Of a DNA stretch of 64,000 nucleotides, positions 7,537 through 41,574 are shown piece after piece. Position numbers and translations under genes: made by a program. This DNA is from an uncultured Phycisphaerales bacterium (GTDB lineage Bacteria; Planctomycetota; Phycisphaerae; Tepidisphaerales; Tepidisphaeraceae): positions 32,001-96,000 of the forward strand of contig CAWJPJ010000007.1 of assembly GCA_963844715.1 (NCBI GenBank), read 5' to 3'. The first letter of the stretch is position 1. Each line of letters starts with the position of its first letter. Under the pieces are notes generated by a model that saw only the letters and a list, made by a program, of their open reading frames with translations, had not been told where the DNA came from and ran no database searches.

Positions 7537-7699
7537 AATGACGAAATTCGAATGACGAATGTGCGATAGCATCCGCCGTGGCGGGACGAATCAATGAACG
7601 AATGCTCGAACCGCCATTTTCGAACATTGGAGCATTGGAATTTGATTCGTCCCGCCACGGCGGATGCTATCGCACATTTGTCATTCGAATTTCGTCATT
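7537..7699. repeat. 163-bp palindromic element with 58-bp arms
   Basis: 7537-7594 is the reverse complement of 7642-7699 at 57/58 positions; diverged arm copy at 19109-19160. Confidence 0.92.
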
Positions 7700-20354: not shown

Positions 20355-21196
20355 CTACGCCACCGCCTGCGGCTTGAACTCCGGCTGCACCGTCACCTGC
20401 ACGCGCGGCGCCATCTCGATCACTTCCTTGGCCAGCACCCGGTAATCGCTCGCCCCGTGGCTTGCCGGTTCATATTGAAAGATCGTCTGCCCGAAGCTCG
20501 GGCACTCGGCGAGTTTGATATTCCGCCGAATCCGGGTGGCGAAGATCTTCGCGTTCGACCACGGCGTGTTCTTGCCGTGCGCGTCGCGGATGAATCCGGA
20601 AAGATCTTCGACGACTTCGGTGCTGAGTTTGGTTTGCGCATCGAACATGGTGAGCACGATGCCGGACACCTTCAAGCGGGGATTCACGCGCCGGCTGACC
20701 AGCGAAACCGTCTCCAGCAGTTTCCCGACCCCTTGCAGCGCCAAAAAGTGCGGCTGCATCGGCACGATCACTTCCTCCGCGCACGCCAGGGCGTTGATGG
20801 TGAGCAACCCCAGCGACGGCGGGCAATCGAGGAGGAGAAAATCAAAATCGTGCTGCGCCGCCTCGATGCGGCGCTTCAGAAGCGTTTGCGCCCCAGAACG
20901 CTGGCCAGTTCGACTTCCGCGCCGGCCAGATCGATGTTGCCGGGAACGATGGCGATGCAATCGCTGATTTTCTGCACCGCCGAAAGAAACGGCGCCTGTT
21001 CCATCAAAACCTGGTAGAGCGACGTTACGTCCGCCGCGCCGGGATCGACGCCGTAATTGATGGTGAGATGCGATTGCGGATCGAGATCGACGAGGCAGAT
21101 TTTTTTTCCCTGCTCGGCTAGCGCGGCGCCGAGATTCGCCGTCGTCGTTGTTTTGCCGACCCCGCCCTTTTGATTCATCAGCGCGATGATGCGCAT
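20355..21196 (-). CDS. ParA/Soj-family ATPase (frameshift near 20885)
   Basis: NQKGGVGKTTT, VDLDPQ, DCPPSLGLLTINAL, IRRNIKLAECPSFG; GGAGG SD upstream; no parB adjacent. Confidence 0.92.
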
Positions 21197-21308
21197 ATCG
21201 CAGCCTCCATGCTCACGACTTTGTATCCTCATTATCGAGTTATTTCGGGTTTAAAACAAGGGATCGGGCCCGCGCGAAGCGGTGAATATGCGAAAAAACA
21301 AGCGGCGG

Positions 21309-21347
21309 AAAAAGAAGAAAGCTTCCGCCGTGGCCGGGAAGCTTTCT
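21309..21347 (-). terminator. Intrinsic terminator
   Basis: 11-bp stem agaaagcttcc/ggaagctttct followed on the minus strand by TCTTTTT. Confidence 0.75.
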
Positions 21348-21359
21348 ATTTCGTTGGGA

Positions 21360-21465
21360 TCCGCGGACCTTATTTTTGGAGCCAAAGGTTTCGCGGAAGA
21401 ATCCGACGGCGGCACATGCGCGAGCATCGCGGACGGTTTTTAGAGTTTGGAGCCACGCGTCCGCG
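21360..21465 (-). ncRNA. Candidate structured 3' UTR or sRNA with twin hairpins
   Basis: Stems 21360-21371/21385-21397 and 21428-21435/21458-21465; both loops carry the same 10-mer (UGGCUCCAAA on the minus strand). Confidence 0.5.
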
Positions 21466-21486
21466 CGCCGCGACAGGTGCGGCGAT

Positions 21487-21552
21487 TTACTTCTTCTTGG
21501 TCGTCTTTTTCCTCTTCGACGACCGCTTTGCGGCTTTCTTCTTCTTTGCCAT
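21487..21552 (-). CDS. 21-aa Lys-rich small basic protein
   Basis: MAKKKKAAKRSSKRKKTTKKK*; AAAGGAGGTGAT SD at 21559-21570, 6 nt from ATG. Confidence 0.75.
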   Translation of the reverse strand: MAKKKKAAKRSSKRKKTTKKK

Positions 21553-21581
21553 GGCGCTATCACCTCCTTTCACAATTGCCA

Positions 21582-21609
21582 AATGTATGTCGCAGGAATC
21601 TCCAGTCAA
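21582..21609 (-). promoter_or_regulatory. Sigma70-type promoter of the small basic protein gene
   Basis: TTGACT-16 nt-TACATT with an A-rich tract upstream. Confidence 0.5.
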
Positions 21610-21699
21610 TGCTTTTTTGTAAAAATCAGCCGGGCATTTTTTCGAAAGCGCGTTGGACGTAGAATTGAATTCTGATCTTTTTTCTACTCGAGGAACATC

Positions 21700-23277
21700 A
21701 TGGCAGTCATTTCAAAACGTCCCTGCGTGATCATCGTTCGCGACGGCTGGGGAAAAAATCCTCATCCGGAATGGAATCGCGCCAACGCGGTTTATCTCGC
21801 GAAACATCCGGTTGCGGATCGAATTATGCAGAAATATCCCGTCACGCTGATTCACACCAGCGGGTTCGACGTCGGTCTTCCCGAGGGAACGATGGGGAAC
21901 AGCGAAGTGGGACACCAGAACATCGGCGCGGGGCGGATCGTGGACCAGGAATCGGTCGCAATCACCAAGCAAATCCGCAACGGACAATTTTTTGCGAATC
22001 CGGCGCTGAATCAGGCAATCGACTCGGCGAAGCTGATGGGCGGCGCGGTGCATTTGTTCGGAATTGTCAGCGACGCCGGCGTGCATGGATTGCTTGAACA
22101 TCTCTACGCGTGCCTGGAACTGTGCAAGCGCAAGGGGCAGGCGCGGGTGTTTTTGCACGCGTTTTCGGACGGTCGCGACACGCCGCCGAGCAGCGGATTG
22201 GGATACGTGCGGGCTATCGAGGAAAAAATGAAATCGATCGGCGTGGGGGCGGTCGCGACGGTGAGCGGAAGATACTGGGCGATGGACCGGGACAACCGGT
22301 GGAACCGCGTGGAAAAGGCGTACCGCGCCATCGTCTTCGGGGAGGGGGAGAAATATTCCTCGGCGACGGCGGCAATTCAGCATTATTACGATCATCCCAC
22401 GTCGCCGAATATGACGGGGGACGAATTCATCACGCCGTCGGTGATTTGCGACGATGGCAAAACGCCGCGCGCGACGGTGAAAAATGGGGACTCGATTATT
22501 TTTTATAATTATCGCGGAGACCGGCCGCGCGAACTCACCAAGGCGTTTGTGATGCCGAAGTTCGAGGGATTCGATCGCGGGCCGAAGCTGGAAGTTTTTT
22601 ATTGCACGATGACGGCGTATGAGCAGAGTTTGCCGGTGCATGTGGCGTATCCGAAGCCGCCGAAGATGAGCAACATCCTGGGTCAGTATGCGAGCGATCT
22701 TGGACTCAAGCAGTTTCGCTGCGCGGAGACGGAGAAGTTTCCGCACGTGACATTTTTCTTCAACGACTATCGGGAGGAGCCGTTTCCGGGGGAGGATCGG
22801 CAGATCATTCCCTCGCCGAAGGATGTGTCGACGTACGACCAGAAGCCGGAGATGAGCGCATACGATGTTTGCGACGAAGTGGTGAAGCGGATCGAATCGC
22901 GGGCGTATGACCTGATCGTGGTGAATTTCGCCAACGGGGACATGGTGGGCCATACGGGCGTGCTCCCGGCGGCGATCAAGGCGGTGGAAATCGTGGATGA
23001 ATGCGTTGGGCGGATCCTGGATGCGCTGAAGAAGACGGACGGCGTGGCGATCGTGCTGGCGGATCACGGGAACTGCGAGCAGATGATCGACCCGGGCACG
23101 GGAGCGCCGCATACGGCCCATACGACCTATGACGTGGAATTGATCGTCGTGGACGACCGGTATGTGGGCAAGAAATTGCGCCAAGGGGGGCGTTTGGCGG
23201 ATGTCGCCCCCACGGCTTTGACGATGATGGGACTGCCGCAACCGGCGGAAATGACGGGTGTGAGCCTGCTTACGTGA
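21700..23277 (+). CDS. gpmI: 2,3-bisphosphoglycerate-independent phosphoglycerate mutase
   Basis: DGWG, MGNSEVGH, DGRDT, GRYWAMDRD, AETEKFPHVTFF, NGDMVGHTG, ADHGN. Confidence 0.97.
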   Translation: MAVISKRPCVIIVRDGWGKNPHPEWNRANAVYLAKHPVADRIMQKYPVTLIHTSGFDVGLPEGTMGNSEVGHQNIGAGRIVDQESVAITKQIRNGQFFANPALNQAIDSAKLMGGAVHLFGIVSDAGVHGLLEHLYACLELCKRKGQARVFLHAFSDGRDTPPSSGLGYVRAIEEKMKSIGVGAVATVSGRYWAMDRDNRWNRVEKAYRAIVFGEGEKYSSATAAIQHYYDHPTSPNMTGDEFITPSVICDDGKTPRATVKNGDSIIFYNYRGDRPRELTKAFVMPKFEGFDRGPKLEVFYCTMTAYEQSLPVHVAYPKPPKMSNILGQYASDLGLKQFRCAETEKFPHVTFFFNDYREEPFPGEDRQIIPSPKDVSTYDQKPEMSAYDVCDEVVKRIESRAYDLIVVNFANGDMVGHTGVLPAAIKAVEIVDECVGRILDALKKTDGVAIVLADHGNCEQMIDPGTGAPHTAHTTYDVELIVVDDRYVGKKLRQGGRLADVAPTALTMMGLPQPAEMTGVSLLT

Positions 23278-41501: not shown

Positions 41502-41574
41502 TGGGCGATAAGGGATTCGAACCCCTGACTTCCACCTTGTAAGGGTGGCACTCTAGCCGCTGAGTTAATCGCCC
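41502..41574 (-). tRNA. tRNA-Val (anticodon TAC), CCA not encoded
   Basis: GGGCGATTAACTCAGCGGCTAGAGTGCCACCCTTACAAGGTGGAAGTCAGGGGTTCGAATCCCTTATCGCCCA folds as a cloverleaf. Confidence 0.97.

Follow-up and report, generated by a model that had tools for sequence, protein, structure and literature searches.

A family-wide, apparently undescribed structured 3′ domain on the gene of a small, putatively H1-like peptide in Tepidisphaeraceae

What role do two neighbouring GC-rich hairpins play that lie between a very short reading frame and a terminator in the genome of an uncultured Phycisphaerales bacterium (family Tepidisphaeraceae; source genome G000)? The locus lies in a stretch of 64,000 nt that we analysed as a whole (contig CAWJPJ010000007.1, positions 32,001 to 96,000; called the window, to which all coordinates refer), and the initial annotation had proposed for it a twin-hairpin RNA that might act as a dual-function small RNA (sRNA). 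The hairpins are part of a predicted monocistronic minus-strand unit of ~265 nt, which comprises, in this order, a sigma-70-type promoter, a perfect Shine-Dalgarno (SD) sequence, a 21-aa Lys-rich ORF, hairpin 1, hairpin 2 and a terminator:

21582..21609, minus strand: sigma-70-type promoter TTGACT-16 nt-TACATT, the sole promoter-like site in 20500-22300 (0.5 in shuffles)
21560..21570, minus strand: extended SD AAAGGAGGUGA, complementary to the 16S 3′ end of G000
21487..21552, minus strand: 21-aa Lys-rich ORF for an H1/Hc2-like repeat peptide, stop codon at 21487-21489
21424..21468, minus strand: hairpin 1 with a loop starting CGUGGCUCCAAA (21446-21457); in G000 the stem reaches about 21408-21483
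21361..21396, minus strand: hairpin 2 with loop (U)UGGCUCCAAA (21375-21385); YYGGCUCC ahead of the terminator in 93/99 family modules
21309..21346, minus strand: intrinsic terminator and U-tract with the invariant tip GCCACGGC (21327-21334); GCCACGG in 98/99 family modules
21352..21536, unstranded: metatranscriptome contig (184 nt, 0 mismatches, 1 gap) that bridges the ORF and both hairpins

The unit occurs once in G000 and is flanked by a divergent gpmI on one side and by parA downstream, the latter being found in 61/101 family modules. (The parA gene of the window, 20355-21196 on the minus strand, consists of two overlapping frames near 20880, each half matching AAA_31, which reflects either an assembly error or a pseudogene.) A promoter of the form TTGAC...TA[ACG][AG]TT is present within 80 nt 5′ of the ATG in 76/99 relatives, and G000 contains just 4 instances of AAAGGAGGT with an ATG after it. 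As initially described, the 10-mer TTTGGAGCCA (plus strand) occupies 21375-21384 and 21446-21455, with no third copy in the window, and on the minus strand both copies are in hairpin loops between the peptide stop codon and the terminator. The CGCGGAC arm shared by the two stems is likewise found, this heptamer or its complement occurring three times (21459-21465, 21428-21434 and 21362-21368). Both observations hold for the window but not for the family: UGGCUCCAA is present twice in just 20/99 modules, and the shared arm in 1/99, i.e. in the window itself. A repeat of at least 10 nt within these 178 nt is found in 36/1000 dinucleotide shuffles and is thus only modestly unusual by itself. The 146-nt region folds with a z-score of -3.18 (0/200 shuffles fold equally well). 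The opposite strand folds about equally well, the sense strand being the more stable one in 58% of 99 modules, so that folding alone does not give the strand; we assign the unit to the minus strand because promoter, SD, ORF and U-tract are all located there. The case from the single sequence is moderate, and it is conservation that establishes the feature.

Relatives of the unit were found by DNA similarity and, to keep recruitment independent of 3′ features, by an SD-plus-start pattern alone, which gave matches in 101/141 family genomes. Pooling both routes yielded 101 family modules; the 99 with at least 200 nt of downstream sequence come from as many genomes in 62 genera (at the level of Tepidisphaeraceae), and about two dozen of the modules were first recruited by a similarity that included the 3′ part. 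Among 10 well-assembled genomes missed by the pattern, the module is present in 4 and was not found with the query used in 6. The full module also occurs in records labelled Tepidisphaerales or Tepidisphaeraceae (L216, L245, L258). Two rows, L009 (one of the 99, left out of the alignment A1 described below) and L366 (a row of the rpsM comparison), derive from the unpublished genome G004, and no claim depends on either. A metagenome scan whose pattern specified just loop 2 and the terminator's 5′ arm returned 70 loci, which correspond to 50 unique modules with an ORF; the remaining loci were duplicates, had no ORF found (mostly because they were cut short) or were chance matches. In viral contigs we obtained 7 pattern matches, none of which represents the ORF or the module. 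All twin-hairpin copies with sufficient upstream sequence are preceded by a Lys-rich ORF, and among the 120 loci listed in a terminator scan of all GTDB prokaryotes, the 19 with an upstream K-rich ORF are all in records titled Planctomycetota. Two family genomes in which the module was not found hold Lys-rich repeat ORFs of about 65 and 105 aa (L457, L460) with a different SD and 3′ region.

The terminator loop GCCACGG is found in 98/99 family modules and in 49/50 metagenome modules, where the search pattern did not fix this loop. For loop 1 the conserved word is CGUGG(CUCC); its CGUGG part is present in 47 of the metagenome modules and in 96 of the 99 family modules, 88 of which have CGUGGC. 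For loop 2 the conserved word is GGCUCC(AA), and GGCUCC occurs at least once in 98/99 and twice in 61/99 modules. Extra hairpins are seen in a few members: in L106 both the CGUGGCUCC and the GCCACGG hairpin are present twice, and L118 and L119 have two CGUGGC sites. Stem halves taken from the same genome pair better than halves swapped between genomes (n=92; -14.1 vs -9.6 kcal/mol for stem 1, -13.4 vs -10.0 kcal/mol for stem 2, and -18.2 vs -13.6 kcal/mol for the terminator). The motif of hairpin 1 is closed by at least 5 pairs in 68/94 modules (35% with shuffled flanks), that of hairpin 2 in 94/97 (53% with shuffled flanks). On A1, a MAFFT alignment of 65 of the 90 eligible rows, the terminator stem has two-sided changes at 7/10 pairs with 93% of cells paired, and the entire structure under test has 58 cells with two-sided changes vs 20 in shuffles (0/500). 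RNAalifold recovered only the terminator from A1 and missed hairpin 2 because this hairpin slips by one column between members; the alignment-free stem tests (half-swapping and flank shuffling) were used in its place. The terminator tip can close as a GC-CACG-GC tetraloop, presumably of the YNMG class, and G-U variants of its G-C cap are found in 5/65 rows. Taken together, these comparisons show three covarying stems with fixed loop words in one predicted transcription unit with a conserved, apparently coding ORF. The conserved, structured module of peptide and 3′ UTR that had been proposed is thereby borne out.

The peptides of the family are 15-37 aa long (median 23) and contain 52% Lys, the remainder being mostly Ala, Thr and Ser. 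Across the family, the putative ORF has a conserved SD, start, stop and composition, with use of synonymous Ala/Thr/Ser codons. In the other Phycisphaerae families the peptide ranges from 18 to 118 aa, with the same SD; for the class the range is 16-118 aa. Short Lys-rich repeats of variable number, a trait of Hc2 and H1, are present. A 118-aa homolog matches Pfam HC2 (PF07382) with an E-value of 5e-4 and 20.6 bits, which is under the 40-bit cut-off, 4/5 peptides including that of the window gave no Pfam match, and none of the 5 matches DUF1127 at E 0.1. In the Atlas the corresponding clusters are unnamed or ‘hypothetical’, and HC2 makes up 17% of the nearest named cluster; by exact-sequence look-up, 0/5 peptides (again including that of the window) were present in a large protein collection. 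In 200 genomes sampled from the phylum, 8 short K-rich ORFs of other classes lack a GCCACGG loop. The peptide appears to belong to a class-wide H1/Hc2-like Lys/Ala repeat family, a relation that the initial annotation had missed; from composition only, we infer an H1-like binding of nucleic acids.

The metatranscriptome contig stems from one public run of contigs, is unstranded and may reflect DNA carry-over; the flanking genes have no near-identical RNA contigs in that run, which we do not count as evidence. The initial annotation recognised no known family and had named unconserved loops or stems, or an Rfam match, as grounds for abandoning its proposal. Loops and stems are conserved in the 99 modules, and with Rfam 15 at the gathering threshold the whole window gives one tRNA only, i.e. 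tRNA-Val(TAC) at 41502-41574 on the minus strand. Up to E 10 only generic terminator matches appear, the best being ctRNA_p42d with 25.5 of 50 bits, confined to the terminator. Elsewhere in G000, an array of about 24 tRNA genes occupies 3.5 kb (C6:952626-956065), and 13 places have copies of an element, probably an IS, whose 134-aa ORF is identical and whose SD is strong. Neither the module nor any regulatory RNA of this class was found described in the literature searched, most subscription papers lying outside that search. The main text of PMC11109978, as far as it was available, does not mention Planctomycetes. The Rhodopirellula-1 motif, a single long hairpin, was rejected as a relative; its alignment rows and consensus differ entirely in the available supplements of PMC2864571.

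How might the 3′ domain act? Tentatively, and with a confidence a little short of even, we favour the reading that the hairpins make up a structured 3′ half of the peptide mRNA and act mainly in cis on this same mRNA. The peptide would bind DNA and RNA non-specifically and help to compact the nucleoid, and its dose would have to be limited because of this proposed binding and compaction. After termination, loop 1 would dock on the terminator loop in a kissing pseudoknot of 5-6 bp, and in about half of the family the C/U-rich linker would fold back on the SD, so that a compact and stable full-length RNA would result that is poorly translated. The CCACG tip of the terminator would be an older, class-wide recognition signal for a trans factor, masked by loop 1 in Tepidisphaeraceae, and the duplicated GGCUCC(AA) loops may be bound by a factor that unfolds the RNA or drives its turnover. 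Cis control by itself leaves the duplication of GGCUCC unexplained.

The central element of the favoured cis reading is a complementarity that had escaped the initial annotation, as had the invariance of the terminator loop GCCACGG itself: CGUGG(C) in loop 1 and (G)CCACG in the terminator loop complement each other exactly. A kissing helix between the two is, judged from the loop sequences, somewhat more likely than not. We examined its register in 145 unique modules, in which four core positions were used in parsing and hence are not evidence. The C of CGUGG pairs in 143/145 (139 C-G, 4 U-G), and 131/145 have a pair at the outer position on the other flank; the positions just outside pair in 41/145 and 36/145. 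In L045 the terminator loop is GCCGCGG and the helix with loop 1 is preserved via G-U; in L354 the local two-pair cap is broken and both CCACG and CGUGG are retained. Two-sided compensatory changes between loop 1 and the terminator loop were not observed, and the support for the helix therefore consists of invariance plus wobble; loop duplex energies are the same for same-genome and swapped combinations. Exceptions are L453, where loop 1 reads UUUGGCUCC without CGUGG beside an intact GCCACGG, and the family members L063, L105 and L082, whose first position is A or G and mismatched. The G-U cap variants also fit a closed CACG tetraloop without kissing. As for the fold-back, ensemble folding predicts the SD to be paired with the inter-hairpin linker in 49/93 modules (mean P 0.43 vs 0.17 with a shuffled linker); the window's own copy has no anti-SD in its linker. 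Covariation between SD and linker is weak (p 0.024 with all rows, 0.12 with one per genus, independent pairs not significant) and loses significance when kinship is allowed for. Pairing of the terminator loop with the own start codon was rejected, same-genome and swapped energies being -12.9 vs -12.8 and a C-A mismatch being fixed.

Outside the family the terminator loop has a different context. None of 18 modules found in other families of the class has the twin hairpins; 9 of these modules carry GCCACGG, 1 GCCACGC and 3 UCCAC, and 5 have none of these words. The terminator word thus appears to be older than the twin hairpins, which would be a family-level addition. The conservation of GCCACGG without a cis partner in other families therefore points to a trans factor. 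In another family (L035, L036, L037), the terminator loop UCAUCCAC is accompanied by a small upstream CCAC/GUGG hairpin, so that the complement is again found in cis. A palindromic repeat, CCGCC-(A/G)C-GGCGG or its complement, lies at 7573, 7652, 19120 and 29485 of the window; its CCGCCACGGCGG form has 32 copies in G000, often near short tandem intergenic repeats. It resembles the terminator tip and may have been its source.

The layout has partial parallels in known systems that control basic or small proteins at the RNA level. Chlamydia, also a PVC bacterium, encodes the H1-like basic proteins Hc1 and Hc2 (hctA/hctB), and according to the available part of PMC4355289 HctA expression is lethal in E. 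coli and restrained by the three-stem-loop RNA IhtA, which pairs with CAUGGCG at the hctA start. GCCACGG resembles the complement of this target. However, as far as described there (PMC4355289), IhtA is a trans RNA encoded separately, and it is through its loop 1 instead of the terminator loop that it pairs perfectly with the AUG region, whereas here the hairpins are in a cis 3′ UTR, loop 1 is CGUGGCUCC and a central C-A mismatch to the own start exists. Compared with Hc2, the peptide of the window has 21 aa and falls under the HC2 cut-off. A further parallel is offered by type I toxin-antitoxin systems. Their toxin mRNAs combine a short ORF, a very strong SD and a long structured 3′ UTR with inhibition by fold-back, the toxin being hydrophobic and opposed by an overlapping antisense RNA. 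Short ORF, strong SD and a 3′ UTR predicted to fold onto the SD recur here. In contrast to such systems, the peptide is not hydrophobic but made almost only of K, A, T and S, an antisense promoter was not found (by consensus scan, a weak test), no phage copy was found, and a single chromosomal copy with conserved synteny is present.

The main alternative, which we regard as possible though less likely, retains the initial idea of a dual-function or 3′-UTR-derived sRNA similar to ccaF1-CcsR or RNAIII. Here the GGCUCC loops would be seeds for ribosome-binding sites of the GGAG(Y)(Y) type, the 3′ part would act whole or after cleavage by RNase E in A/U-rich linkers, the terminator loop would perhaps be a further seed, and the basic peptide could serve as chaperone, Hfq and ProQ not being found in the 85%-complete G000. 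The duplicated loop word is invariant and exposed on variable, covarying stems, with at least one GGCUCC in 98/99 modules, and the predicted accessibility of the CUCC seed agrees with the original proposal, CUCCAA of loop 2 being unpaired with P 0.86-0.94. RNase E/G is present in G000 (its match is split in two pieces), and CUUC/UUCU directly follows the stop codon in 77/145 modules, similar to the RNase E sites ACUUC/CUCUUC of CcsR in the accessible part of PMC8034643. What speaks against the sRNA is the outcome of target searches of limited extent, none of which gave anything conserved. GGAGCC is not enriched near starts (93 genes vs 46-142 for nine control hexamers, in a crude call of 4356 genes), the best-looking candidate, rpsM, retains it in 5/29 orthologs, and TTGGAGCC-N-ATG occurs 96 times vs 72 for the reversed control in 5 genomes, 30 translated sites of the 96 having no gene in common. 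The seed is only 6 nt long and mismatches the strong SD GGAGG, and the sole RNA contig joins ORF and hairpins. Two further candidate targets were rejected: the tRNA-Asn genes of G000 do not end in GGAGCCA, and RNase P RNA contains no complement. Intergenic CGUGGC hairpins in G000 yielded no convincing trans partner. Cis control and a trans sRNA can coexist.

Comparison with the two model systems of the sRNA reading shows a resemblance in layout and differences in detail. The ccaF1-CcsR1-4 (cuckoo, ar14) RNAs of Alphaproteobacteria likewise combine the gene of a small basic protein with a pair of 3′-UTR hairpins per unit, whose loops each contain CUCC, and with RNase E-like CUUC sites, as far as the available part of PMC8034643 describes them. 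Their loop is CCUCCUCCC, whereas GGCUCC and CGUGG are found here by loop profiles, and their peptide is a DUF1127 (CIN1) protein instead of a Lys/Ala/Thr repeat; unlike in the CcsR units described there (PMC8034643), the two loops here differ in their invariant core, the terminator loop complements loop 1, and the organism belongs to another phylum. S. aureus RNAIII also consists of a peptide ORF and 3′ hairpins with C-rich loops, three in number with the terminator among them, and its 3′ end is implicated in delaying its own translation (PMC8383071, accessible part). RNAIII has 514 nt and 14 hairpins vs 265 nt and three hairpins here, where the peptide is basic and not of the membrane; there is no sequence relation (Rfam negative), and for the present module no conserved target was found. 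The layout resembles both systems, but the module falls outside either family.

A more far-reaching extension, which we consider rather unlikely, joins the cis control with the conserved terminator word. Metazoan histone mRNAs end in a 3′ stem-loop that is conserved in sequence. By analogy only, as we claim no homology and the stem-loop here is that of an intrinsic terminator in bacteria, Phycisphaerae would make an H1-like peptide of protamine size that gene callers have missed, and its mRNA would end in a terminator stem-loop recognised in a sequence-specific manner by a dedicated factor, as a bacterial counterpart of the histone-mRNA stem-loop. Tepidisphaeraceae would have added a kissing-loop switch and the twin GGCUCC loops, so that one 265-nt RNA would gate its own translation and also work in nucleoid condensation, either by acting in trans or by forming, together with the peptide, a self-pairing scaffold.

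It is improbable that the loops are decoys for protein or rRNA, with GGCUCC(AA) titrating an RNA-binding protein (a CsrA paralog, for instance) or imitating or pairing with an rRNA element, either GGAGCCAA in the L1 stalk of the 23S or the GGCUCAAC loop of the 16S. In 8/9 family genomes the 23S reads GGAGCCAA, complementary to UUGGCUCC, ahead of UGAAAUACCA, and G000 has two CsrA genes. But GGAGCC at the 23S site occurs also in families without the hairpins, a 6-mer match in about 4.5 kb of rRNA is expected by chance, and in 23/97 modules the GG of loop 2 is preceded by C, not by U. Pairing with the G000 16S stem CCACGG/CCGUGG was rejected too, as this stem varies freely and differs between genomes whose loops stay fixed. 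CsrA binds GGA, whereas the three loops hold GGC, and no set of loop GGA motifs as in a CsrB/RsmZ-type sponge was found on the transcribed strand. The CsrA-type GGA that the initial annotation had placed on the opposite strand finds no support. It would need an opposite-strand transcript, and a consensus scan of 20500-22300, albeit a weak test, gave no plus-strand promoter. The A-rich stretch that precedes the terminator stem, with 6.7 A per 12 nt on average, would tend to halt such a transcript before the hairpins. In parA leaders (L015, L019, L022, L053), the ribosome-binding region is often CACGGAGG, which we take to resemble a CsrA site.

Still less likely is a role of the RNA itself as a component of the nucleoid, in which chains or rings held by loop 1 and the terminator loop and coated by the Lys-rich peptide would help to condense DNA. 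Complementary loops at opposite ends permit intermolecular as well as intramolecular pairing, L106 carries two hairpins of either type, parA lies downstream in 61/101 family modules, and planctomycete nucleoids are condensed, with no histones detected in Gemmata according to the available part of PMC3440768. This scaffold lacks direct evidence, the parA synteny may reflect history alone, the peptide occurs without loop 1 in other families, and the Gemmata work (PMC3440768, as far as available) concerns another class. We give the least credence to hairpins that merely stabilise an abundant short mRNA, with loop words kept by descent or as a stable tetraloop cap: the tip can indeed fold as GC-CACG-GC with G-U variants and CCGCCACGGCGG recurs 32 times in G000 as a repeat palindrome, but the loop words are fixed across 62 genera while the stems diverged and covary, L354 lacks the cap and keeps CCACG, and three modules keep CCAC in an open loop.

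On comparative grounds, the module represents a real, family-wide and apparently undescribed structured 3′ domain on the gene of a small H1-like peptide. A terminator loop that is fixed in sequence across several families implies a binding partner. In PMC3440768, the agent of nucleoid condensation in planctomycetes is treated as an open question. For this question the locus supplies a concrete candidate, a tiny Lys-rich peptide whose gene looks strongly expressed, together with its probable control at the RNA level.
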